DNA of 20,000 bases from an uncultured virus (IMG/VR IMGVR_UViG_3300027865_000006). Taxonomy: Duplodnaviria > Heunggongvirae > Uroviricota > Caudoviricetes. Shown in pieces: positions 1-17,832 of the stretch. The position numbers and the translations under genes were made by a program. Every line of letters begins with the position of its first letter. The first letter of the stretch is position 1. A model generated the notes under the pieces. The model was not told where the DNA came from. It saw nothing but the letters and a program-made list of their open reading frames with translations, and searched no databases. The stretch lies in the IMG/VR virus record IMGVR_UViG_3300027865_000006. The stretch is one strand, 5' to 3'.

Positions 1-117
1 AAACATTTAGATCCCACCAAAACAATTATGCTTTGTACAAGTGGCCCATTAGATCCCCTCGTGCTTCAAAACAGCGACGGAGATCACATAGCCGTCATAA
101 TGCCTATGCGTATTTGA
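1..117 (+). CDS. dnaN: DNA polymerase III beta sliding clamp-like protein, C-terminal fragment (5' truncated)
   Basis: Frame 1 reads KHLDPTKTIMLCTSGPLDPLVLQNSDGDHIAVIMPMRI*. The P-x-x-P-hydrophobic segment plus terminal VIMPMRI matches the typical beta-clamp C-terminus. Only 38 aa visible; not in the ORF track. Confidence 0.7.
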   Translation, partial: KHLDPTKTIMLCTSGPLDPLVLQNSDGDHIAVIMPMRI

Positions 118-129
118 TGAGGTGGATTG

Positions 130-153
130 AAAGGGGGAATCATTCCCCCTTTT
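130..153 (+). terminator. Rho-independent terminator, possibly bidirectional
   Basis: AAAGGGGGAA-TCA-TTCCCCCTTTT inverted repeat with T-tail just after the tandem TGA stops at 115-120. Confidence 0.7.
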
Positions 154-184
154 ACTCGGTTTTATCAAACGAAAGGGAAACAAC

Positions 185-604
185 ATGAATTTAGCAGAAA
201 AATTTGAAGTGCTTGCTTATAAGACTAACCACTTTCCGATCGCTAAACACCATTGTGTGGCTACAATTAAAGATTTAAATTCGCGAGATATTTACGCTCT
301 TTTTACAGATGGTTCAGTCGCGAAATGGATTGATGAATGTTGTAATTGGTTTGAGCAAGGGGAACGGGTCTTTGTGAATACTGCCGAAGAGTTTGGGGAT
401 GGAAATGAGCCTTTAATCGGCGAGACTCCTGAACGGGTGTTAGAAGATCCTGCGTTAGTGGCGTTAGTGGCTGACTGGGCTAAGCAATGTGAAGGTGATT
501 TTGAGGCCCACCGAAAACTTATCCGGGTTGAATTTGCAAAAGCACTAAAACCCGCCACATGGGACGGCAAGCGATGGTTGGAGGGTGAATCATGTATGAA
601 GTGA
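185..604 (+). CDS. Hypothetical protein (139 aa)
   Basis: ORF with SD GAAAGGGA at 171-178; overlaps next gene. Confidence 0.8.
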   Translation: MNLAEKFEVLAYKTNHFPIAKHHCVATIKDLNSRDIYALFTDGSVAKWIDECCNWFEQGERVFVNTAEEFGDGNEPLIGETPERVLEDPALVALVADWAKQCEGDFEAHRKLIRVEFAKALKPATWDGKRWLEGESCMK

Positions 605-1065
605 AATTATTGAAAGGCACCGAACCGTTGCGTGTATGGCCTAGCTCGACACTCGCAGCAGCGGGGCAAGCCTATGTCAATCCTGGCCTCCTCGCTCCGA
701 TTGGCACAATTGCGCAGGCAACCTGTGTGACGCTTTCAAACCCAGATTCATTTCTGGGGGGGTTACGCCGTAGACCAGATGAACTCATTTGGATAATTGC
801 GTGTGAGCATGACCAGCGCGTGGAGGTGCATGAATTGTCTTATGCGCTACTGAGGAAACCACTGGAGAAACTCCACAAGCAGATCCTAGCTTGGTTTCCT
901 TACCTGGATCCATGGCGTGCCGTTGCGATTGCGTCCGGTTTGCGCGATTGCGCTTTCATGCGTCTCAGCAAATGGGTTACGTTGGATTTGGTTGAGGTCG
1001 ATCCGAGACATTGTGAACTAAAATTACTCAAACGCGCACAGGAGATAGATAATGAGACGAGTTGA
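592..1065 (+). CDS. Hypothetical protein (157 aa)
   Basis: SD GGAGGG at 580-585; short overlaps with both neighbours. Confidence 0.75.
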   Translation: MYEVKLLKGTEPLRVWPSSTLAAAGQAYVNPGLLAPIGTIAQATCVTLSNPDSFLGGLRRRPDELIWIIACEHDQRVEVHELSYALLRKPLEKLHKQILAWFPYLDPWRAVAIASGLRDCAFMRLSKWVTLDLVEVDPRHCELKLLKRAQEIDNETS

Positions 1066-1393
1066 ATACCCAACTCCCGCGCAAATGGTTCATAGCGAGC
1101 CATTTGAGCTCAACACCATCAAACGGCTTCACAAGCTCTTCCCGAAGGAGAGTCGGCTACGGTTGACCTACGGATTTCCGGAAGATGAATGTTGTGATTT
1201 GGAAATCGAGTATCAGGTAAAAAAGGGTGGTCGCTGGCGAGCTATTGGATTCGCTCAAGGATCGATGCTGTTTAAATGGCTTCCGGAAGGCAGCTCGGGC
1301 GAGTTTCTCGGCTGGATTCATGATTTGTATCATGACAAGGTTGATATCGAGAATTCCCCCGTGGATAAGCTCCACGAAGATTGTTTCACGTGA
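1052..1393 (+). CDS. Hypothetical protein (113 aa)
   Basis: SD AGGAG at 1040-1044; last gene before a 267-bp intergenic region. Confidence 0.75.
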   Translation: MRRVEYPTPAQMVHSEPFELNTIKRLHKLFPKESRLRLTYGFPEDECCDLEIEYQVKKGGRWRAIGFAQGSMLFKWLPEGSSGEFLGWIHDLYHDKVDIENSPVDKLHEDCFT

Positions 1394-1463
1394 TGAAGCC
1401 GAAAACCTAGCGTGACTAGGTTTTGAACTTGAAATTGATACCATCATTTGGTAGTTAGTTTGC

Positions 1464-1572
1464 GCGCCAGTTGTTCTTTCAGTGCTACGTTGGAACTATT
1501 TTTAACGAGCCTTCGAGACAAGCTCGCTATTTGGTGGATGGAGCCTCACCCTCTATCCCTGGCGCATTTTTT
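1464..1572 (+). ncRNA. Candidate structured RNA A (cloverleaf topology, not a canonical tRNA)
   Basis: 7-bp closing stem GCGCCAG(1464-70)/CTGGCGC(1559-65); arms GTTC/GAAC, CGAGC/GCTCG, GGATGGAG/CTCTATCC; then A and T6. G-U pairs work only on the + strand. Confidence 0.5.
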
Positions 1573-1649
1573 CTTACGCCCTCAAAGCTCCGTTACTCGC
1601 TGAGTTACTTTCCCTTTCGCAGGGGGTAACGGGGCTCTGAGGTCGCAAG
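1573..1649 (+). ncRNA. Candidate structured RNA or leader B (long hairpin with pyrimidine-rich loop)
   Basis: CCTCA(1580-84)/TGAGG(1638-42), AGCTCCGTTAC(1586-96)/GTAACGGGGCT(1626-36), CTG/CAG; loop AGTTACTTTCCCTTTCG; ends right at the helicase SD. Confidence 0.5.
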
Positions 1650-1660
1650 AGGAGAAAATT

Positions 1661-3916
1661 ATGGGTGAATTTAAGGGTCGAGTGACTCGGGTGCATAGAT
1701 CCGGGGAAGAATGGAGTTCTGGCCGGATTTATTGCCACCATCTCGATAAGGAGATTGGCTTTGCTGGCTCTTGTTACGCCTCGACGGGTGTGACTATGAC
1801 GCTTTACGGGGAGCTGGTCACAGATCCCAAGTGGGGTCAGCAAATCAAGGTTACGTCCGGCCAAGTCGACCTGACGTTTACGGCGCAAGGGCTGATTGAC
1901 TATCTCACCGACGAAAACAAATTCGAGCATATCGGGCCGGTGCGTGCTCGTGCTCTAGTCGACGAATTCGGAGTGGACGGTTTTCAAAAGCGCGCTGAAG
2001 ATCCCTCGCGTCACATGGATTTCGCGAAGATCAACGGAGTCACCGCCGAAACTGCTAAGGGGATCCATGATCATTGGCAGGAAGCCAAGACGGTTAATGC
2101 CCTCATGGTCGCGTTCCGAACCTATGGACTCGACCACGCGCGTGCAATCCAGGTTGTAAGAGCCCTTGGCGGTACCGCTGTGCTGCTATTGAGGGAAGAT
2201 CCCTATCGGTTGATTGACCTGGCTGGCGTGCCTTTCGCTGAAATCGATAAAGTAGAGAGAGCGGGTGGTATCGATAAGCGGGATGTTCGCCGAATAGCTG
2301 GCGTGGTTCTATCCGTCCTCACGCATCACGCAAAGGACGGGCACACTCGTATGGACCATAAGGCCCTCCTGACCGCTGCGCGCAATTACAGCGCCTATAT
2401 GGGGCTTTCTGTCGAGAAGATGCAGGAAGCCGAGAAATACCGAGCTGGGTTGTCCTCTGGATCTCCATTTCAGTTGCTGGAGTATGGCGCGGCTTTGACC
2501 AGGCTCCTAAAAGCCGAGCAAGATTTCTACCAGTGGGTTGTAAAGAGCCGGTCGCAGCCTTCGCAGCTTGCGAAGCGTACACACACAGCTAGTGCTGTAG
2601 CACCGTCTGAATTAACCGCGCAGCAGCAACAAGCCTTTAAGCTCTGCCTGAATTCTTCTGTGACTTGGATTTATGGCCTCGCTGGCACCGGCAAAAGTTA
2701 CAGCGCGAGGATGATTTGCGATCTGTATTCAGCAGCGGGAATGAGTGTGATGCTCATGGCCCCTACGGGCAAGGCTGCGAAGCGTCTCGAGGAGTCTACT
2801 GGACGGGTGGCCACCACTATTCATAGGGGTCTCGCGTGCCGTCCGAAAGTCGGCGGGGCGTCCGGTAAACTGAAGTTTACGTTCGAGGGCGATCCCCTCG
2901 AGGCTCAGCTCATCATAGTCGACGAAGTTTCCATGGTTGACTCCGAATTAATGGGTCACTTAATACGTCGTATTGATCTCACGCGAACATCTGTGATTTT
3001 TATGGGTGATGTCAATCAACTCGTACCAGTGGGAGCGGGGCAACCTGCCGTAGATATTCATAAATTTGAATGTTGCGTGCCTATGGTTCAATTGACCGAA
3101 ATCGTAAGGCAAGCGGGTAAACTCGCGCACTATTGTGTTGATGTATTGGATAACAAAGTACGTGAAACTACGGACTATGAGAACGGGTGGATACTGCGCA
3201 CGAGTGTTCAGGCTACCGATACCTACGAACATATTCTAGGGGCTTTCGAATCCAAGTGGACGGAAGAGTACGACTCGTTTTCGGATATTCAAATACTCAC
3301 TCCTCAGAATCGAGGACCGTTAGGGGTCAACACACTCAACATCGTATTGCAGCGCCATTTTCAACTTTCGCGCTACGGAATCCATACGGATACACCGCTC
3401 GATGGCCACCCTCAAATCATGGTGGGAGACAAGGTTATCCAAACGAAAAACGATTACAATTTGGGGATCTTTAACGGTGATACTGGAATCGTTTTGGAAG
3501 TCGTAGAAGATCAGTTTCATACCTACAAAAAAGGGTCGATTTGCGTGGACTTTGGCTTGATCGATCCTGTATGGTTGTTAACATCAGGGGGATCTTCAAA
3601 TACTAATCAGACCAAGAATCTCAAGCTAGCATACGCGCTCACAGTCCACAAAGCTCAGGGCTCTGAATACCCTTGTGTCATCGCAGTCGTAGACCGAATA
3701 CATAAACATATGCTTACCCGTTCTTGGCTCTACACAGCCGTGACAAGGGCGCAAGAATCGATCTGCATTCTCGGCCAACTATCCGCTGCTCAAACCGCAG
3801 CCAGGCAAATACATTCACCAATCGCGAAGACTCAAGGCCCACGGCAGACCTACCTCAGTGCCCTCCTCTTGGAGGAGGATCTTGCTAACTGGTCTGAGGA
3901 GGAAACCAAATCATGA
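1661..3916 (+). CDS. recD2: RecD2-like ATP-dependent SF1B DNA helicase (751 aa)
   Basis: N-terminal OB-like region (G.LVTDPKWGQQ), HhH-like IGPVRA, EDPYRL, Walker A GLAGTGKS, APTGKAAKRL, DEVSMVD, GDVNQL, GDKVIQTKNDY, NGDTG, YALTVHKAQGSEY, LYTAVTRA. Confidence 0.95.
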   Translation: MGEFKGRVTRVHRSGEEWSSGRIYCHHLDKEIGFAGSCYASTGVTMTLYGELVTDPKWGQQIKVTSGQVDLTFTAQGLIDYLTDENKFEHIGPVRARALVDEFGVDGFQKRAEDPSRHMDFAKINGVTAETAKGIHDHWQEAKTVNALMVAFRTYGLDHARAIQVVRALGGTAVLLLREDPYRLIDLAGVPFAEIDKVERAGGIDKRDVRRIAGVVLSVLTHHAKDGHTRMDHKALLTAARNYSAYMGLSVEKMQEAEKYRAGLSSGSPFQLLEYGAALTRLLKAEQDFYQWVVKSRSQPSQLAKRTHTASAVAPSELTAQQQQAFKLCLNSSVTWIYGLAGTGKSYSARMICDLYSAAGMSVMLMAPTGKAAKRLEESTGRVATTIHRGLACRPKVGGASGKLKFTFEGDPLEAQLIIVDEVSMVDSELMGHLIRRIDLTRTSVIFMGDVNQLVPVGAGQPAVDIHKFECCVPMVQLTEIVRQAGKLAHYCVDVLDNKVRETTDYENGWILRTSVQATDTYEHILGAFESKWTEEYDSFSDIQILTPQNRGPLGVNTLNIVLQRHFQLSRYGIHTDTPLDGHPQIMVGDKVIQTKNDYNLGIFNGDTGIVLEVVEDQFHTYKKGSICVDFGLIDPVWLLTSGGSSNTNQTKNLKLAYALTVHKAQGSEYPCVIAVVDRIHKHMLTRSWLYTAVTRAQESICILGQLSAAQTAARQIHSPIAKTQGPRQTYLSALLLEEDLANWSEEETKS

Positions 3917-4191
3917 GTGAGGTAAGCAGAAACCGTAATACTAAATTCTTTTTCGCTTTCCTGGGTCTCCTGTTCGGCGTTGTCGTAACTCTTTCAGGGT
4001 TACGTGGTTTACACGAACCTCGCGTCGAGATTCCAGTTGAGCCTTCCGAGGATACCAGTGCTGACGCGCAGTACGACCGGCTAATCGAAAAGTGTCGCGC
4101 TGCCTGTAAACCCAATGCAGTGAAGTCTTGCACCATGATTAATGACTGGGGCGTGTGGCCTCGAATTGAATGCTGGGGGCCGAAGCTATGA
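3913..4191 (+). CDS. Small membrane-anchored protein with Cys-containing C-terminus (92 aa)
   Basis: ATGA coupling to helicase; hydrophobic FFFAFLGLLFGVVVTL; four Cys in C-terminal part. Confidence 0.75.
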   Translation: MSEVSRNRNTKFFFAFLGLLFGVVVTLSGLRGLHEPRVEIPVEPSEDTSADAQYDRLIEKCRAACKPNAVKSCTMINDWGVWPRIECWGPKL

Positions 4192-4553
4192 AGTTACTTT
4201 TAGCCCATTTTAAAGAGCTCTATGATCTTCCTGAAGAGTGGACCTGGCAGAGATCCGATGCAATGACTTTCCCCGGATTTTGGATGCTTACGGGAGCTGT
4301 GTACGCTCCGTGTAAATCAGGCAAGCGTAAAGGCCAGCCTAACTGGCGCAAGCCTTTGAGCCCCAAAAGAACCTTGCTTATCGCTGAAGACGCCCACCGA
4401 GCATGGACAGAAGAATGGTCAAAGCGCACTGGTCTTTGCGTTAGGTGTACGGGGGACGGTGCGACTTTGAAATCCTGGGATCATATCAAAGGAGCAACAC
4501 TTAGACCCTGCCCTAAGTGCGACGGTACGGGGAAACGCGAGGGGAAGCTATGA
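4188..4553 (+). CDS. Hypothetical protein with DnaJ-type CxxCxGxG zinc finger (121 aa)
   Basis: Start moved to ATG 4188 (ATGA overlap). Motifs CVRCTGDG and CPKCDGTG. Confidence 0.8.
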   Translation: MKLLLAHFKELYDLPEEWTWQRSDAMTFPGFWMLTGAVYAPCKSGKRKGQPNWRKPLSPKRTLLIAEDAHRAWTEEWSKRTGLCVRCTGDGATLKSWDHIKGATLRPCPKCDGTGKREGKL

Positions 4554-4864
4554 CTAGAGCTGAATTACTCCTACGTCTAAACGTAATCGCTGGCGAGGAT
4601 ATGAAAGCCACGAAAGACACACTAGCTTTCGAGGACTCATGGGTGCCTGATCGGTGGTTTCGCGAATGTCTTCCTGGGTATGGCCCTTTGATGCGCTGCG
4701 AAAATGATCACGTGTCAACCCAGGGACTGCAAACCGAGGACCAAGGAATTTTATGTTTTGGGTGTTGGGCGAAGGTGGTCTGGACCTTTCCGGAAGACGA
4801 GAACGGACCCCTCGAGGATAGCTGGACGAGACTTCAAAAACTACGCGAGAAGGATCAAAGATGA
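4550..4864 (+). CDS. Hypothetical protein, possible zinc ribbon (104 aa)
   Basis: Start moved to ATG 4550 (ATGA overlap, SD GAGGGG). CENDH...CFGC pattern. Confidence 0.75.
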   Translation: MTRAELLLRLNVIAGEDMKATKDTLAFEDSWVPDRWFRECLPGYGPLMRCENDHVSTQGLQTEDQGILCFGCWAKVVWTFPEDENGPLEDSWTRLQKLREKDQR

Positions 4865-5981: not shown

Positions 5982-6046
5982 TTGAAGTACCCCCGCGCTC
6001 CCAAAGGGTAACAAAACCAGGCGCGGTTAGCAAGAAAGGGATCACC

Positions 6047-6769: not shown

Positions 6770-7010
6770 AAATCGAGCTAAACTCACGCTAGTCCTACCT
6801 GAAGGCACTGAAGACACTCCAGCTACTGAGGCGCTAATTCTAGCGATGTTCGGGCTTGCGGGGCAGCACGATTTGAAGCTCAGTCTTTTAACTGGCGAAA
6901 GCGTTTCACCTATCACGGTATCAGGGGATATAGATTTAGTTTATGCAGAGAAGATCAAGCAAGCGGCTTTGAGTTATGTGCATATCTGGGAGTCTTCGAA
7001 GCCATCGTAA
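6762..7010 (+). CDS. Hypothetical protein (82 aa)
   Basis: Strong SD AAGGAGG; 8-nt overlap with lipoprotein stop. Confidence 0.75.
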   Translation: MTENRAKLTLVLPEGTEDTPATEALILAMFGLAGQHDLKLSLLTGESVSPITVSGDIDLVYAEKIKQAALSYVHIWESSKPS

Positions 7011-7714
7011 AAACCCTTCTCGAAATTATCCAAAATTCGTTTGATTGTTTTCGGGTCAAATGACTTGCCATTGCGCTGGTAAACTCCCTTGTCGGCTAGT
7101 TTAGCGGCAATTTTGCGGTAGCTTTCGCCCTTGGGCTCTGCAGTTCTCAAGTCGTGCATAAAGCGCAAAGCACCCATTTCATCCAAGTTGTATTCGAGGT
7201 GCATGGGATCGTCGTCGCACTTCTTCAGGCCGTAAGGCACAAGCCCGCCAATGTGCTCCAGGTTGCGCCTCTTGAATTGCATGACCGCTGATACTCGTTC
7301 CGAGGTTTGCTCCCGCTCTAGCTGCGCCAGCGAGCCCAAGAGATTCAAGCCGAACCGACCCATTGCCGTATCCGTATCGATGTTGTCACTCATGGAGATG
7401 AGCCGGTAGGCGCTTTTCGAATGGAAGTACAAATCGACTAGCCCTAGCAGGTCTTTGAGCGTGCGTGTGAGGCGGTCAATCTTTACTATGAGCAGAGCCT
7501 CGACTTCATTGTTGTCGAGCATACGCAGGGCGCTCTTGAGGCCCTCGCGCTTTTCGATGGTAGAGCCAGAAATCCCTTCGTCGCTTTTGATGTCTATGAG
7601 GTCAAGCTCCTTGGCATGAGCAAACGACTTCATGCGATCTGCTTGCTCTGCTAGGGAGTGCCCTCGCTCGGCTTGCATGACCGTGGAGACTCGTATGTAG
7701 CCAACTGTCTTCAT
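6974..7714 (-). CDS. Serine recombinase (resolvase catalytic domain plus short recombinase-type DNA-binding domain, 246 aa)
   Basis: GYIRVST (catalytic Ser), SDEGISG, R.GL, KIDRLTR, IDTDTAMGR, AQLEREQTSER, GG..PYG, SYRKIAAKL. True start ATG 7714 (SD GAAAGG, ATGA overlap), not 7873. Confidence 0.93.
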   Translation of the reverse strand: MKTVGYIRVSTVMQAERGHSLAEQADRMKSFAHAKELDLIDIKSDEGISGSTIEKREGLKSALRMLDNNEVEALLIVKIDRLTRTLKDLLGLVDLYFHSKSAYRLISMSDNIDTDTAMGRFGLNLLGSLAQLEREQTSERVSAVMQFKRRNLEHIGGLVPYGLKKCDDDPMHLEYNLDEMGALRFMHDLRTAEPKGESYRKIAAKLADKGVYQRNGKSFDPKTIKRILDNFEKGFYDGFEDSQICT

Positions 7715-7965
7715 GGTGCCTTTCCCGGCCACGCGCCTATTATTACGGTGTGCTCTGTTCGGGTTGTTCGGATGCTTCGCGACTTGCCCGCTATGGAATG
7801 CACGAAACCACCGTCCACTAGTCGGTCGAGCATGTAGGCAATCGAAGTAGCGGTTCGTTTTACGAGGCCGCATAGTTCTAGCTGTGTTGGAGCACTTCCG
7901 TGCTCTAGCCAGTATCCTTCAATAGCTTCGATGTATTCTAGCTGTGTTGGTGTTGGTTGATTCAT
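7711..7965 (-). CDS. LexA N-terminal DNA-binding-domain-only protein (84 aa)
   Basis: T..Q...I......G.APT..EL.......S....L..L...GF....GKSRSIR matches the LexA winged HTH; no peptidase domain. Confidence 0.85.
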   Translation of the reverse strand: MNQPTPTQLEYIEAIEGYWLEHGSAPTQLELCGLVKRTATSIAYMLDRLVDGGFVHSIAGKSRSIRTTRTEHTVIIGAWPGKAP

Positions 7966-8782: not shown

Positions 8783-9080
8783 TTTTAGTCCCCCTTTCGG
8801 CACCTAACACTGAAGTAACGTACCCAGTGTAATCATGAACCCAGCAACGTCTAAGGCTCTCAGACTCTCGGTCTGCGTCGGTATCAGGTTGTGCTCTGAC
8901 TGAGCAGTGTTCATAGAGGTTTAAGTCGGGGGTAATAGAGGTTTGCTTACTTTCTGGAAGTTGTATTTTTTGAGCCGTGGCAAAAATGTGTATGCTTGAA
9001 GCTGTCAATGCAGTGTTAATGAAAATTGCAAGAAGCAACACAAGTCCTATGATGATTAATGTGCGTAATTCTGGGTTCAT
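8772..9080 (-). CDS. N-terminally anchored membrane protein (102 aa)
   Basis: LIIIGLVLLLAIFI helix; SD GGTGAGG; ATGA-type overlap. Confidence 0.8.
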   Translation of the reverse strand: MNPELRTLIIIGLVLLLAIFINTALTASSIHIFATAQKIQLPESKQTSITPDLNLYEHCSVRAQPDTDADRESESLRRCWVHDYTGYVTSVLGAERGTKNAD

Positions 9081-9526: not shown

Positions 9527-9834
9527 TTAGTCCTCCTTTGTGAGGCTTTTAGCCTCAAAATTTCTTTTACCTCGTCTAGCGTTATACAGTCCTCTGGGGG
9601 AGAATAATTAAACTTCTGAACGATGCTTTCCTCTGGGCCATCGCTCATAATCGGCACTTCAAGATTTGATTGCGTATTTGATGGTCTTCCGGAAAGCGGC
9701 GTAGGCACCGTATTTTTGACAGGATCAATTGGGCAAAGATCCATTTCAACGATAATGGCTATCGTTATAAACACCATGCCTATAAGTGCGCTGGCAAAGA
9801 ATAAACATGCTAAGGCTAATTTGAGGCTACTCAT
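9523..9834 (-). CDS. N-terminally anchored membrane protein (103 aa)
   Basis: Start moved to ATG 9834 (ATGA overlap with MTase stop); hydrophobic LALACLFFASALIGMVFITIAIIV. Confidence 0.75.
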   Translation of the reverse strand: MSSLKLALACLFFASALIGMVFITIAIIVEMDLCPIDPVKNTVPTPLSGRPSNTQSNLEVPIMSDGPEESIVQKFNYSPPEDCITLDEVKEILRLKASQRRTK

Positions 9835-10541
9835 TTCTCTTCCTTCCAGTCCAGCCACTTGAACTGCGTTGCTCCGGGAGGATTCCACGGTCGCCACAAG
9901 GCCAAGATATACTCGCGCATGTCAGTGCCATTGGATTTCCCCTCGCGCACAAATCCAGCACGCGGTACCAACATGTTAATCTCCCATGGAGTGAACTGCT
10001 TAAAGAATTCTCGCCTGCGGATTGCACCTAAAAAACCGGATTGTAGCAGCATGGCCACCACGCCATCTTTGTCTACGAGCTCCATGCTAGTACGCACGAA
10101 TTCTTCCGCTAAAGAGAAAGGCGGATTGCCTAAAATGACAGTCGACTTCAAAAAGGATTTATCGTTTTCGGTGAGTGCTAGGTAGTCGAGCTTTTCATAC
10201 TCAGCATTCTCACTATCGAAGTCTTCTGGCTCATCTATGATGTCTACGCCAGTCAAGCACAGCGGGGCTCGCCCGTCCCAAGCCTTATTGAAGGCTTTAA
10301 GAAAAGGACCATCGTAGCAGCCAGGTTCGAGCACGTAGATCGGGTCTTTTTGATTGCAGAGTAGTCCTGACCCCAGGTGAATTTTTTTCACCATATCGAC
10401 CACTACTTGTGTAAGTGGCTCGGCGAGGTTTGGGCGAGTGCGGTAGAGGTCTCTATCCTCGCGAGGATTCTTGGGTTTGGTAGTACTGAGTTTTTCAGAT
10501 ATGGCTTCGTATTCGTCAACGCTGAGAGTAATAACGCCCAT
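9831..10541 (-). CDS. Small orphan amino-DNA methyltransferase (motif I before motif IV, gamma-like order, 236 aa)
   Basis: DLYRT (motif X-like), VLEPGCYDGPF (motif I), TGVDI, ILGNPPFS (motif IV), GVVAMLL. Start ATG 10541, SD GAGGAGGA. Confidence 0.85.
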   Translation of the reverse strand: MGVITLSVDEYEAISEKLSTTKPKNPREDRDLYRTRPNLAEPLTQVVVDMVKKIHLGSGLLCNQKDPIYVLEPGCYDGPFLKAFNKAWDGRAPLCLTGVDIIDEPEDFDSENAEYEKLDYLALTENDKSFLKSTVILGNPPFSLAEEFVRTSMELVDKDGVVAMLLQSGFLGAIRRREFFKQFTPWEINMLVPRAGFVREGKSNGTDMREYILALWRPWNPPGATQFKWLDWKEEK

Positions 10542-10771
10542 CAGTCTTCGTCCTCCTCTTTGCCCTGCATTTTGAAAATGCCGTCGAAATGATCCCATGC
10601 GTCAGTAACGCTACTAGCGCTGTAACTACTTAAAAACTCACTGATGTCTTGCTGTGTTCCGAGGCCGACTAGCGTTGAAAAGCAGGTCGGGCAAATGTAG
10701 CCGTGTTCAGGGCTATAGCGGCTGCACATGATGTTATCACAGCCCCATTTTGCGCATTCTAGAACGCTCAT
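10541..10771 (-). CDS. Cys-rich hypothetical protein (76 aa)
   Basis: C-x4-C-x4-C...CPTC; coupled to both neighbours. Confidence 0.75.
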   Translation of the reverse strand: MSVLECAKWGCDNIMCSRYSPEHGYICPTCFSTLVGLGTQQDISEFLSSYSASSVTDAWDHFDGIFKMQGKEEDED

Positions 10772-11784: not shown

Positions 11785-13014
11785 CTATTCCTCCGATTTT
11801 TCTAGTTTTTCAAGCCGCGCTACGGCTTTTTCAATCCTTTGCTGCGCAACCTTAAAATAGCTTTTATCTATTTCGATGCCGACGAAACCAAACCCCTCAT
11901 GCACAGCAGCTTTACCCGTCGAGCCAGAACCCATATATGGATCCAGCACAGTGCCTCCAGGTGGGGTTATGAGCCTGCACAAGTACCTCATGAGGGCTAG
12001 AGGTTTGACAGTGGGGTGGTTATTTTTTGCGCCTGCGGGGAGTTCTTTATTTCGTTCGCTTTTTGACGCTTTAGCGCAGTAAAAGAATCGAGCAGCAGAT
12101 CCTTGATCTCCGTAAGATTCTTGAGTCACAAAGCCATTTTTTGCGTCTCGACCATAAACGCCTCTTTGACTATTTGAGTGTGTTGGCATCATTTTGCCGC
12201 TCTTAGTTTCGGGAAACACTGCTAATACTTCTTCTGAGCCATCGTGGATCAGGTTGGCTGGAAATCTTCCGGTTTGAGTAACTGAGGCAGCGACTTTATG
12301 AGCCGTTGGCCGATCTTCTCTATTCTCGCCTTCGCGCCACGCATCAAAATTACTGCCTCCCGAAGAAATAAACGGAGCCCCTACCCGACACTGCTCAATA
12401 TTGATTCCGCCTGTGCCCCACTTCAGCACATTGGCTACAATGGTCTTTTCGCTCAAAGGCTTGCGGGCTAGAGTGAAGAATTCACAGGCTGGCTTTAACG
12501 CCGTACCCCAACCATCCCACTGCTGGGCAGCTTCCGTTGCAGGAGCTGTGATAGTTGCACCATTGTCGGTGCGATCCGACTTCTTGCTGGTGCCTCCGAT
12601 ATTACCAATAGCCCCGCTTGCATACTTTCTATTTGGCCGTACCCGAGAGGAATCATGGCCTACTACCTTTCTCTTAGCCCCCGCCGCTTTGTCGATAGCT
12701 TTGCCAATGTTCAAATTTTTCGGAAACCCCGAACCATACACCCAACTCACAATATCGCGTATCTCAAAGCCTGCGTCCTCAATATTCACAACCATCCTGT
12801 GCTGTGTCCTGGTTCCGCAAGCGCATAGCATGTGACCGCCAGGCTTCAGCACTCGCAGTGCTTCTTCCCACACCTCCACAGAAGGGACGTTGTAATCCCA
12901 TTTCTTAGCCATAAACGAAATCCCGTACGGAGGGTCAACAACGATAGAGTCAACCGAATCGCAAGGAAGACCAGCCATCTCCTCTAAACAATCGCCTAGA
13001 TACAATTCAATCAA
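11785..13014 (-). CDS. Orphan N4-cytosine/N6-adenine DNA methyltransferase, beta group (409 aa)
   Basis: LYLGDC, VDSIVVDPPYG (motif IV), RVLKPGG, WVYGSGFPK, GRFPANLIHDGS, HPTVKPLALM, VLDPYMGSGSTG (motif I). Likely start TTG 13014 with SD GGAG, not 13122. Confidence 0.95.
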   Translation of the reverse strand: MIELYLGDCLEEMAGLPCDSVDSIVVDPPYGISFMAKKWDYNVPSVEVWEEALRVLKPGGHMLCACGTRTQHRMVVNIEDAGFEIRDIVSWVYGSGFPKNLNIGKAIDKAAGAKRKVVGHDSSRVRPNRKYASGAIGNIGGTSKKSDRTDNGATITAPATEAAQQWDGWGTALKPACEFFTLARKPLSEKTIVANVLKWGTGGINIEQCRVGAPFISSGGSNFDAWREGENREDRPTAHKVAASVTQTGRFPANLIHDGSEEVLAVFPETKSGKMMPTHSNSQRGVYGRDAKNGFVTQESYGDQGSAARFFYCAKASKSERNKELPAGAKNNHPTVKPLALMRYLCRLITPPGGTVLDPYMGSGSTGKAAVHEGFGFVGIEIDKSYFKVAQQRIEKAVARLEKLEKSEE

Positions 13015-13055
13015 AACAAACTCCGATTTTTTCAAACTCCCTCGACCATGAAAGA

Positions 13056-13303
13056 GTGTGGCAGTGCTATCACAATTTTCCGTGTGTGGCAATGGACTCC
13101 TACTGCCACGCACGTTTACCATAGCAAACCGGGCATTTAGCCCTTTGAGGGGATCAATTTTCCGTAGGGGCCAGTAGGGGTAAATACGCGGAAAATAACG
13201 GTTTTTATCCGTTTTTACTCGAGTGAAAAATAAAAAATAAATTATTTTTAGGGGAATGTCAGATCTAGCGTCTCGGTGTGCTATCCTGGGGGAGCCTTGG
13301 GAT
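13056..13303. promoter_or_regulatory. Palindrome-dense, AT-rich intergenic region (regulatory hub or candidate origin)
   Basis: Inverted repeats at 13081-13114, 13131-13143, 13157-13196, 13197-13213, 13212-13229, 13233-13249, 13283-13303; pure A/T run at 13226-13250. Confidence 0.5.
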
Positions 13304-13516: not shown

Positions 13517-13570
13517 GAGTTGTCCTTTCGTTTAGAATTGTAGTAAATTACCTGAGCTATTGCATTCATC

Positions 13571-16280: not shown

Positions 16281-16790
16281 ATGGAATGGATTGGCGTAGA
16301 CCTTGATAAAACTCTTGCGGAATACCATGACTTCCAGGGTATGCTGCATATCGGCAAACCGATTCCCAAGATGGTTGCCAGGGTAGTAGACTGGCTAGCT
16401 GAAGGGCGCACAGTCAAGATACTGACGGCCAGAGCGTACCCAAATGGCATGATTAATCGGGACACTCCTACAGTAGGGGGTACTCCACTTCACCTTATTA
16501 TAAAGGCTATCCAAGATTGGTGCACGGAGCACATAGGGCAGGCCTTAGAGGTAACATGTGTCAAAACCATTCACATGACTGAGTTATGGGATGATCGCGC
16601 TGTGCAAGTGGTACCCAATACCGGCGAACGAGTCGGTGAGGGGAGCTCGAAAACAGCAGATTTCAATCCGGACGCTTTCGCGCAGGGGTATGCTGACCTT
16701 CTCCATGAAGTTGAGCAGCTTCGTAAACACCGTGCCACATTAGTGGTGAAGTACGAGAAATTGAGAGCTAAATATGAGGGGCAAGTATGA
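16281..16790 (+). CDS. Capless HAD-superfamily phosphatase, phage type, with coiled-coil tail (169 aa)
   Basis: WIGVDLDKTLA (motif I DxDxT), ILTAR (motif II), K, LWDDRA (motif IV). Confidence 0.85.
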   Translation: MEWIGVDLDKTLAEYHDFQGMLHIGKPIPKMVARVVDWLAEGRTVKILTARAYPNGMINRDTPTVGGTPLHLIIKAIQDWCTEHIGQALEVTCVKTIHMTELWDDRAVQVVPNTGERVGEGSSKTADFNPDAFAQGYADLLHEVEQLRKHRATLVVKYEKLRAKYEGQV

Positions 16791-17164
16791 CTGAAGCAAA
16801 GTATAGTAAAGCAGAAATCAGCCAAACCACTTCCAGCCAAACCACTTTTCGTTACACTACTGACGAGGCAGGTCCGGGGCACATTCTCTGTGCTGCGATT
16901 CACTTCAAAACCGAAAATGCTTACGCACACCAGCCTCGTAACATCGAGCACGGTATCGTGCTTTGTGGTTGGCGGCACCATAACTGTATCGCTATCGCCA
17001 GCGCTATGCACATACCCAAGAGCACTAAGTATGTTCAAGGCTTCCTCACGAGCAAAGGTATGTTCGTGGATCGGGAAGAAGGCGCTGCAATGGCAATCGC
17101 TGCCGGTCAGGTCGAAGAAGGCGCTCAGATTTCCAAATGCCTAACTAGCGAAGATCTCTACTAA
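16787..17164 (+). CDS. Hypothetical phage-type protein, paralogue 2 (125 aa)
   Basis: CAAIHF...QPRNIEHGIVLCGWRHHNC...QGFLTS..FVDREE...AGQ...LTSEDLY; coupled to both neighbours. Confidence 0.85.
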   Translation: MTEAKYSKAEISQTTSSQTTFRYTTDEAGPGHILCAAIHFKTENAYAHQPRNIEHGIVLCGWRHHNCIAIASAMHIPKSTKYVQGFLTSKGMFVDREEGAAMAIAAGQVEEGAQISKCLTSEDLY

Positions 17165-17832
17165 TGGATGATTGGCCTGTGGTTCCTTTGTGCTCTAAGC
17201 AGCTTTTAGACGTGAATTCTAGGGATATTTTAGAGGGAGGTCTGTATCGGAAGTGTAATGTGTATAAGGGCGGTGGGGGTTACGATCAGTTCCCAGCCAT
17301 ATATAAGAAACGCTTTGGGCGTGCAGAAGATCCAGTTCAGTTTGTGGTCCAGCTTAAAGGGTGTCCTTTAAAATGCCCTTACTGTTACGTGACTCGGCAG
17401 GGAGTTTGGGGGGACGCTATAGAAGTTTCTACGCTCTCAATGTTGCAGGCATACGACAGAACCGGATTGGATATTTTTCATTTAATGGGAGGAGCACCAG
17501 CAATATATCTACACCGTTGGAAAGAATTGGCCTCTAAGGTCAAAGTGTTTCACAGTGATTTATTACTAGTAGAGAGTCTTTACCGAAGCAAAGACTTAAA
17601 GGATTTGCCAGGGCTCCATGCGGTCTCGTTTAAGGAACGTCACATATATCCATCAGCTTGGATACCTAACATTTGGCGGAACTTGGAAAAACTCATAGAA
17701 AATCGAGTCAACTTTTACATAACCTTTACAGGCTCCGATGAGTTTAGTTCTGAAATTATTGAGCGTTTTGGCCCTGAAGTCTTAGAAGATAGTTTTATAA
17801 TTCCTGTCAAACAGTACAAAGCCCTAGATTAA
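17164..17832 (+). CDS. Short radical SAM enzyme (222 aa)
   Basis: GCPLKCPYCYV (CxxxCxxC) and FHLMGGAP (GGEP-like); TAATG coupling to upstream gene. Confidence 0.88.
   Translation: MDDWPVVPLCSKQLLDVNSRDILEGGLYRKCNVYKGGGGYDQFPAIYKKRFGRAEDPVQFVVQLKGCPLKCPYCYVTRQGVWGDAIEVSTLSMLQAYDRTGLDIFHLMGGAPAIYLHRWKELASKVKVFHSDLLLVESLYRSKDLKDLPGLHAVSFKERHIYPSAWIPNIWRNLEKLIENRVNFYITFTGSDEFSSEIIERFGPEVLEDSFIIPVKQYKALD

Follow-up and report, generated by a model that had tools for sequence, protein, structure and literature searches.

The window analysed here, 20 kilobases (kb) of a 74,295-base-pair (bp) contig (P0001) of the uncultured virus IMGVR_UViG_3300027865_000006, carries a 267-nucleotide (nt) spacer (1394-1660) before the gene of a RecD2-like helicase, and this spacer is a conserved, non-coding, folded RNA of the + strand. 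In each of three lineages, 10-11 nt in the apical loop of its last hairpin, hairpin B, form the exact complement of an extended ribosome-binding site (RBS) motif, YGAAAGGRAAR, located 4-5 nt before an ATG. The element is most likely a ~197-nt 5' leader of the helicase mRNA, with transcript ends placed from the sequence. We put at about even the prospect that this is a helicase-operon leader whose anti-RBS loop would pair with a shared RBS motif and thereby limit initiation, the base of the hairpin masking the Shine-Dalgarno (SD) sequence of the helicase in two lineages. The analysis followed up an original prediction, made from the window sequence, that two structured elements, A and B, form a phage small RNA (sRNA) system silencing early genes through loops complementary to their SDs.

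Searching with a helicase alignment retrieved four metagenomic loci, L001-L004. Together with the window, they form three lineages: the window, L001 and L002/L003/L004. The L001 helicase, encoded on a contig of 42.7 kb, is 68% identical to that of the window, and the helicase relatives P0002 and P0004 reach 68% and 52%. L002 and L004 are 96.6% identical, and L003 matches L002 at 98.95% over 1335 shared nt. The spacer is syntenic in all three lineages, with an orthologue of a 113-amino-acid gene (44-55% identity) on one side and the helicase start on the other. The parts of the element, and the gene that follows it, are these:

1404..1422, + strand: hairpin P0 (AACCTAG-CGTGA-CTAGGTT), just 3' of the stop codon of the 113-amino-acid gene.
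1464..1565, + strand: domain A, a multi-helix domain comprising P1, P2 and P3.
1464-1470 with 1559-1565, + strand: P1, the closing helix.
1470-1478, + strand: invariant single strand GTTGTTCTT next to P1, the same in L001 and L002/L004.
1484-1510, + strand: P2, found in the window and L001 only.
1536-1543 with 1551-1558, + strand: P3 (hairpin A of the original prediction, 1536-1558), with a C-rich loop at 1544-1550.
1567..1655, + strand: hairpin B, a conserved, irregular helix of ~34 bp.
1603..1619, + strand: apical loop of hairpin B, AGTTACTTTCCCTTTCG, with a conserved closing G-C pair; this is the candidate anti-RBS sequence.
1649..1654, + strand: helicase SD, GAGGAG, inside the basal helix of hairpin B.
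1661..3916, + strand: RecD2-like SF1B helicase (751 amino acids).

No reading frame is open across all three lineages in the spacer. Two small open reading frames within it (1448-1603 and 1471-1629) were considered as genes and rejected, as they are unconserved across lineages. The fold of 1394-1660 beats that of shuffled sequences on both strands (z = -5.3 and -5.2). Five of the seven pairs of P0 show compensatory changes; a T-run follows this hairpin in the window only, and no terminator was called there. In P1, three of the seven pairs are changed on both sides, the two strands reading GCGCCAG/CTGGCGC, GCGCCGG/CCGGCGC and ATGCCGG/CCGGCAT in the three lineages; these were counted by eye, since MAFFT misaligned domain A of L002, so that RNAalifold returned 0 pairs there. 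P2 is absent in L002/L004, and L002 has a deletion of ~40 nt at this place. P3 has eight pairs, four of them compensatory. The invariant single strand of domain A reads GUUGUUCUU. No conserved pairing partner was found for this strand (GTTGTTCTT at 1470-1478), although AAGGATA, the helicase SD of L002, could pair with it in that locus. The idea of a second anti-RBS seed here was rejected, shuffles being as good in 100/300 and 61/300 cases.

In hairpin B, both partners have changed at 20 of the 34 pairs, and pairing is kept in 91.1% of 101 cells; neither any of 500 shuffles nor any slid control is as good. Nine of the 34 pairs never vary, and the length of the hairpin is conserved (~25 positions from the inner base to the loop). 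The minus strand would form 25 pairs at -27.0 kcal/mol, against 34 pairs at -49.6 on the + strand, and a covariance model of the element, R1, scores 80-103 bits on the + strand and 31-40 on the minus strand across sequences (79.9 and 31 in the window). The + strand folds better because many of the pairs are G-U. Both hairpins of the original prediction, A (here P3) and B, thus exist and are conserved.

While the stem of hairpin B covaries, most columns of its loop are invariant. The loop has the sequence AGTTACTTTCCCTTTCG (window), AGTTACTTCCCTTTCA (L001) or AGTTTTCTTTCCTTTCA (L002/L004), is 16-17 nt long with the consensus AGUU..CUUYCC(C)UUUCR, and is unpaired in all folds computed. It is pyrimidine-rich and resembles the anti-SD tail of the ribosome. 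The extended RBS motif is present at a single site in both the window (gene 185) and L003, and at six sites in L001. Just as the original prediction had it, loop part TTTCCCTTTCG (1609-1619) of the window is the exact reverse complement of CGAAAGGGAAA (170-180); each string occurs once in the 20 kb. The shorter loop matches that it listed at genes 6047, 8782 and 13516 are likewise present, 5, 9 and 7 nt before the start codons:

170..180, + strand: RBS motif CGAAAGGGAAA of gene 185, ending 4 nt before ATG 185.
185..604, + strand: reading frame of gene 185 (139 amino acids), with no family assigned.
6034..6041, + strand: GAAAGGGA, an 8-nt loop complement at the RBS of gene 6047, 5 nt before ATG 6047.
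8792..8799, - strand: CGAAAGGG, an 8-nt loop complement 9 nt before ATG 8782.
13524..13530, - strand: CGAAAGG, a weak 7-nt loop complement 7 nt before ATG 13516.

L001 has the 10-mer TGAAAGGGAA six times on the + strand (1365, 1678, 1952, 2870, 3999 and 4604), and all six copies stand 4-5 nt before an ATG within 4.6 kb upstream of the helicase, the motif genes lying 1.3-4.6 kb upstream. Three of them extend to the 11-mer TGAAAGGGAAG. The reverse complement of the 10-mer is found in L001 once only, in the loop of hairpin B. Among the L001 motif genes are those of a RadC-like JAB protein and a sliding-clamp-like protein. At 1365-1395, the motif precedes an ATG that opens a frame of just 10 codons, so that this site either belongs to a tiny leader peptide or is a motif present without a real gene. 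In the third lineage, the RBS of L003 gene 3477 holds GAAAGGAAAG, to which the L002-type loop sequence CTTTCCTTTC is exactly complementary, and the helicase SD of L002 itself, TGAAAGGA, is an 8-nt loop complement. The L003 orthologue (3913) of gene 6047 is without the motif, which is found there on the inserted gene 3477 just upstream. Gene 185 has no homology to the motif-bearing genes of L001 and L003 and no relative in L001 or L002/L003. Since the motif-bearing genes are non-orthologous between lineages, the motif has been kept as such and not passed down with any single gene. Elsewhere in these elements, the SDs of other genes are of the GGAGG type, and canonical pairing with 16S ribosomal RNA therefore fails to explain an invariant 10-mer RBS.

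Alignment of the loops by their 3' ends leaves three positions that vary from lineage to lineage, and at each of them a cognate RBS bears the complementary base. The relatives thus keep the complementarity through loop changes, and they contain the compensatory changes that the original prediction had proposed to look for. The bases are given in the order window, L001, L002 for the loop and window, L001, L002-L003 for the RBS:

Variable position 1: loop G/A/A, RBS C/T/T.
Variable position 2: loop C/C/T, RBS G/G/A.
Variable position 3: loop T/C/C, RBS A/G/G, with G in 3/6 of the L001 sites.

The longest exact matches of each loop (in nt) to the RBS sets of the window, L001 and L002+L003, in that order, have their highest value in every row and column at the cognate combination:

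Window loop: 11 / 10 / 6.
L001 loop: 9 / 11 / 7.
L002 loop: 9 / 7 / 10.

For the window, the significance of these matches was assessed against 38 gene starts, obtained with our own crude caller. Composition-preserving shuffles of the 17-nt window loop reached an 11-nt exact match to any of the 38 starts in 12/5000 cases, and four starts with at least 8 nt in 3/5000. Natural pyrimidine-rich 17-mers of the window were as good as the loop in 6/1215 cases. For the L001 loop, shuffles had at least five RBSs with at least 10 nt in 1/5000 cases, a count helped by the likeness of the RBS copies, and for the L002/L003/L004 loop a maximum of at least 10 nt was reached in 27/5000. The natural pyrimidine-rich control gave 58/1306 in L001 and is confounded there, because the six RBS sites are repeats, and their antisense strands match one another. 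When duplex energies were computed with RNAduplex, which allows G-U pairs and bulges, gene 185 ranked first of the 38 starts for the window loop (-16.8 kcal/mol); 69/300 shuffled loops had an energy as good. The ranking of start regions suggested by the original prediction thus places the expected gene on top and does not lift it above shuffled controls, and its caveat that pyrimidine-rich strings easily match purine-rich SDs holds for the energy ranking. In the window alone, only the exactness and length of the hairpin B match stand out from chance.

Element A fared differently. It had been proposed to silence genes 592 and 1052, and the complementarities themselves are there: 1546-1558 forms 11 Watson-Crick pairs and one G-U pair, with one U-U mismatch, with 576-588, and 1552-1565 forms 14 bp with two 1-nt bulges with 1034-1049. 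Genes 1052 and 592 also rank first and second of the 38 starts for the A segment (-25.9 and -24.8); shuffles were as good in 22/300 cases. The segments said to pair with these two RBSs belong to conserved helices, in which they serve as the 3' strands of P3 and P1. In L001, the RBS regions of the orthologues of genes 592 and 1052 (4930 and 5387) are without a comparable A match, and 203/300 shuffles equal the L001 A segment; in L002, there is no A match at the RBSs of the orthologues (210 and 718). The element A matches are regarded as chance or, at most, specific to the window, and the silencing of genes 592 and 1052 by element A is unsupported. Of the three upstream genes that had been named as targets, gene 185 bears the motif; genes 592 and 1052 do not. 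That the targets are early genes, and that they are silenced, were assumptions of the original prediction.

The sequence around the element bears on where its transcript may begin and end. A consensus scan of 1394-1660 called no promoter and no terminator-like site after hairpin B. By eye, a promoter-like spacing is visible at 1429..1457 on the + strand (TTGAAA, 17 nt, TGgTAGTTA), uncalled by the consensus scan; the aligned places, also read by eye, are TTGCAT-17-TGcTAAATC in L002 and TTGAAA-17-TGaTAGGTA in L001. Were this a promoter, it would, we infer, place the 5' end of the RNA near 1464, where P1 begins. Because no terminator follows hairpin B, and because the hairpin runs directly into the SD and ATG of the helicase, the element would be a 5' leader unless it is processed; this arrangement lends no support to the free sRNA of the original prediction. 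The ~34-bp length of the helix is, as a length, compatible with an RNase III processing site. In the basal helix of hairpin B, TTTTTTCTT pairs with AAGAGGAGA, which sets a U/C-rich strand against the helicase SD in the window and L001, where the SD has a predicted probability of being unpaired of 0.0-0.1. The homologous GAGGGT of L002 remains in a paired state, 22 nt away from the ATG; the working SD there (GAAAGGA) is outside hairpin B. Masking of the SD is therefore predicted in two lineages, and is not the one function conserved throughout.

If the element is a helicase-operon leader with an anti-RBS loop, its action might be as follows. The leader would display the apical loop of hairpin B as an anti-RBS sequence, and the loop would contact the motif RBSs of several replication-module genes by loop-to-single-strand antisense pairing. 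Such pairing in the cell would limit binding of the 30S ribosomal subunit at these sites, with repression as the proposed effect, while the basal helix of hairpin B would mask the helicase SD in the window and L001. Translation of the motif genes would thereby be linked to the amount of helicase-operon transcript. The contact may take place in trans; were all the genes on one long transcript, it could instead be made in cis. Equally possible would be that the pairing titrates the leader or acts within one long transcript.

Several observations weigh against this reading. The covariation rests on three positions, since only three lineages are available and their loops and motifs are homologous, and non-cognate loop-RBS combinations also match over 9-10 nt. 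By duplex energy, the L002 loop does better with the L001 RBSs (-17.8) than with its own set (-15.0), and the energy of the window loop, as said, is within reach of shuffles. The sequence CCUUUC is part of many bacterial 16S 3' tails; the loop contains it, and so some complementarity to any GAAAGG-type SD is expected. The visible 20 kb of the window gives a long loop match at one RBS only, and the starts against which matches were counted are crude. Masking of the helicase SD is not universal, as L002 illustrates, and the consensus scan supplied neither a promoter nor a terminator after hairpin B. Seawater metagenome runs carry the window sequence, and no RNA run is listed among those that match it.

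The main rival explanation is a leader that acts purely in cis, as a mask of the SD, as a processing site (e.g. for RNase III) or as a protein operator for the helicase gene. Its loop would then be conserved for protein or ribosome binding, and the RBS complementarity would be a by-product of likeness to the 16S anti-SD. The burial of the helicase SD in the basal helix (window and L001), the lack of a terminator after hairpin B, the conserved length of the long irregular helix and a window loop energy no better than that of shuffles are all in keeping with it, and the match of the L002 loop to the SD of its own helicase fits a contact in cis. We consider this explanation possible, if on the unlikely side, as it leaves three things unaccounted for: exact matches of 10-11 nt that extend beyond the GAAAGG core, the three covarying positions, and an invariant 10-mer RBS at six L001 genes amid GGAGG-type SDs. 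It is very improbable that a pyrimidine-rich loop simply meets purine-rich RBSs by chance and without function. Chance would be at ease with 69/300 shuffles equalling the energy of the window loop, but not with the exact-match controls (12/5000, 3/5000, 6/1215, 1/5000 and 27/5000) or with a complementarity that recurs in three lineages despite loop changes.

The feature may also reside in the DNA, the 10-mer being a site that a protein binds in either orientation, or hairpin B a structure of single-stranded DNA (e.g. a replication origin or a single-stranded DNA promoter) beside the replication genes. A change in the specificity of a DNA-binding protein would alter all motif copies in concert, the element sits in a replication module, and single-stranded DNA tolerates G-T pairs. 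Such an explanation is nevertheless improbable: the direct copies share one orientation and a fixed distance of 4-5 nt to the ATG, which is a property of RNA and translation; the single inverted copy coincides with the apical loop of hairpin B, whose helix shows compensatory change at 20 pairs; and the + strand folds better than the - strand. Quite improbable, too, is the full model of the original prediction, in which a stand-alone sRNA with elements A and B silences genes 185, 592 and 1052. Its literal complementarities are present, and genes 1052 and 592 head the ranking for the A segment; against this, the A segments are strands of the conserved helices P3 and P1, 22/300 shuffles equal them, the L001 A segment is without such targets (203/300), no match is seen at the RBSs that L001 and L002 have for their orthologues of genes 592 and 1052, and no terminator bounds an sRNA.

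A bolder version of the anti-RBS leader, which we hold to be doubtful, is a private 'RBS code', in which a 10-11-nt motif would mark replication genes, the leader loop would read the motif, and loop and motif would co-evolve in each lineage. Under such a code, the leader would govern when replisome proteins are made, or in what stoichiometry, and its lineage specificity might provide RNA-based exclusion or immunity, with a resident element (a serine recombinase gene is present) silencing the replication genes of an incoming relative that shares the motif. In this uncultured marine element, the loop (17 nt) and the RBS motif (11 nt) make a small pair with natural compensatory variants in three lineages. 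If real, the pair would represent a new RNA family, would make co-regulated genes of uncultured phages predictable from sequence alone, and would be a candidate orthogonal loop/RBS part for translation control.

Strain variation and small sequence features were also seen around the element. Among contigs of four seawater DNA runs, strain variants occur in X2 at 1401-1403 and 1427, and none of the differences listed fall in 1428-1660. X4 and X5 contigs, also from seawater runs, carry unrelated sequence up to position 591 and have loose ends at 591; as these strains differ in the DNA before position 592, gene 185 appears to be a replaceable cassette. One X4 contig omits 3913-4860 (948 bases, three small genes), making 3912-4861 a mosaic zone. 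Just 5' of the gene-185 RBS is a terminator-like hairpin, TGAAAGGGGGAATCATTCCCCCTTTTA (128-154), whose 5' arm resembles the RBS motif and whose 3' arm resembles the loop of hairpin B. A 28-nt element, TACCCCCGCGCTCCCAAAGGGTAACAAA, is present as one copy per locus in the window (5988-6015), L001 (9045-9072) and L003 (3416-3443), with 1 and 4 substitutions and differing flanks. It holds a small CCC-AAA-GGG hairpin, lies 20-45 nt 5' of a GAAAGG-type RBS and may be a promoter or operator.

Elsewhere in the window, the following genes could be named:

6974-7873, - strand: serine recombinase.
9831-10598 and 11785-13122, - strand: two DNA methyltransferase-like genes.

Parts of this minus-strand recombinase/methyltransferase region are shared with L001 at 74-78% nucleotide identity, and the serine recombinase hints at a temperate or invertible element. 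At 16787-17832, a 125-amino-acid protein (phrog_839) is followed by a 222-amino-acid protein whose radical-SAM match, at 28.4 bits, falls short of the 29.5-bit cutoff, and a HAD/PNK-like protein of 169 amino acids directly precedes the phrog_839 protein; these genes may form a nucleotide or DNA-modification cassette. No structural phage gene was detected among the genes that could be named in the 20 kb. The label 'phage' is thus deduced from PHROG-type replication genes. No tRNA or tmRNA was found in the window.

Homologues of the element beyond the three lineages were sought in several collections. Among viral contigs, the exact loop string was absent, and neither a helicase protein query nor an alignment of the 113-amino-acid protein had a match. 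The helicase alignment retrieved 65 viral loci there, every one at no more than 38% identity. Two structured DNA patterns retrieved 5 and 1 loci from the same contigs, which are AT-rich coding DNA, and 0/6 match model R1. Among genome contigs, the helicase protein query had no match, and the alignment search led to 80 kept loci, which are distant RecD2 genes. Across 96 sources (the window and L001-L095; 679,382 bases; L096-L149 excluded), R1 matched only its four training sequences. In phage and plasmid collections, blastn with window positions 1-4000 had no match and tblastn with the helicase gave only matches below 60% identity, so that no cultured phage or plasmid is close to the element. 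Rfam 15 at the gathering score gave 0 matches in the window, including for C4 antisense RNA, RsaE/RoxS and cuckoo-type RNAs; at E<=10, the only hits to the region 1380-1680 were microRNA-hairpin models scoring far below threshold, the best of them reaching 27.1 bits where the gathering score is 120.

Control by antisense pairing at RBSs is known. A helicase leader with a private RBS motif, as this one may be, was not met in a literature search at record level. To our knowledge, very few phages have been described that regulate their own gene set through a shared RBS motif, and those do so with proteins and not RNA (T4 RegA/RegB). In T4, RegA is a repressor protein and RegB an endonuclease, and both act on early-gene RBSs. 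The present element would resemble them as a means by which a phage turns down its own gene set via a shared RBS feature; it would differ in that the proposed agent is an RNA, theirs being a protein. The lambda N leader and the T7 intercistronic R sites are SD-masking leaders or RNase III sites of phage mRNAs. Hairpin B is like them in being a long irregular hairpin that immediately precedes a gene and, in the window and L001, holds the SD at its base; we know of none of them that carries a loop complementary to the RBSs of other genes.

One close parallel would be the c4 antisense RNA of phages P1 and P7 (immI operon), which pairs with a message further down its own operon. In P1, the c4 RNA is excised from the leader by RNase P as a discrete small RNA. 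Loops of c4 reportedly pair at a ribosome-binding site, with P1 and P7 differing by matched changes of loop and target (Citron and Schuster 1990). In P1/P7, c4, icd and ant1/2 form one operon, and full repression of ant needs the C4 antisense RNA (PMC8198154). As in that system, the present element would be a phage RNA at the head of an operon; its loop is complementary to an RBS of its own element, with matched changes between relatives. Unlike c4, it consists of one ~34-bp hairpin and a junction domain, and its putative targets are several genes upstream and elsewhere, whereas c4 has one downstream RBS.

A second parallel is offered by the UCCC or C-rich-loop RNAs of Firmicutes (in Staphylococcus aureus, RNAIII hairpins, RsaE and other Rsa RNAs). 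The most conserved part of these RNAs holds an unpaired C-rich motif that binds SD regions and prevents an initiation complex from forming (PMC2790875). The loop of hairpin B likewise holds an unpaired, conserved UCCC/UUCC, within CUUYCC(C)UUUC, that is complementary to RBSs. UCCC-loop RNAs are bacterial and stand-alone, with their own terminators and short seeds; the present RNA is encoded in a mobile element, runs on into an mRNA and matches a private RBS motif over 10-11 nt. Of the own promoter and terminator that would mark a stand-alone sRNA, 1394-1660 contains only the by-eye -35/extended -10 pattern. As it has no Rfam match, no bounding terminator and a different fold, the element is a member of neither family; in its proposed action, it would work most like c4 of P1/P7 and the staphylococcal UCCC-loop RNAs.

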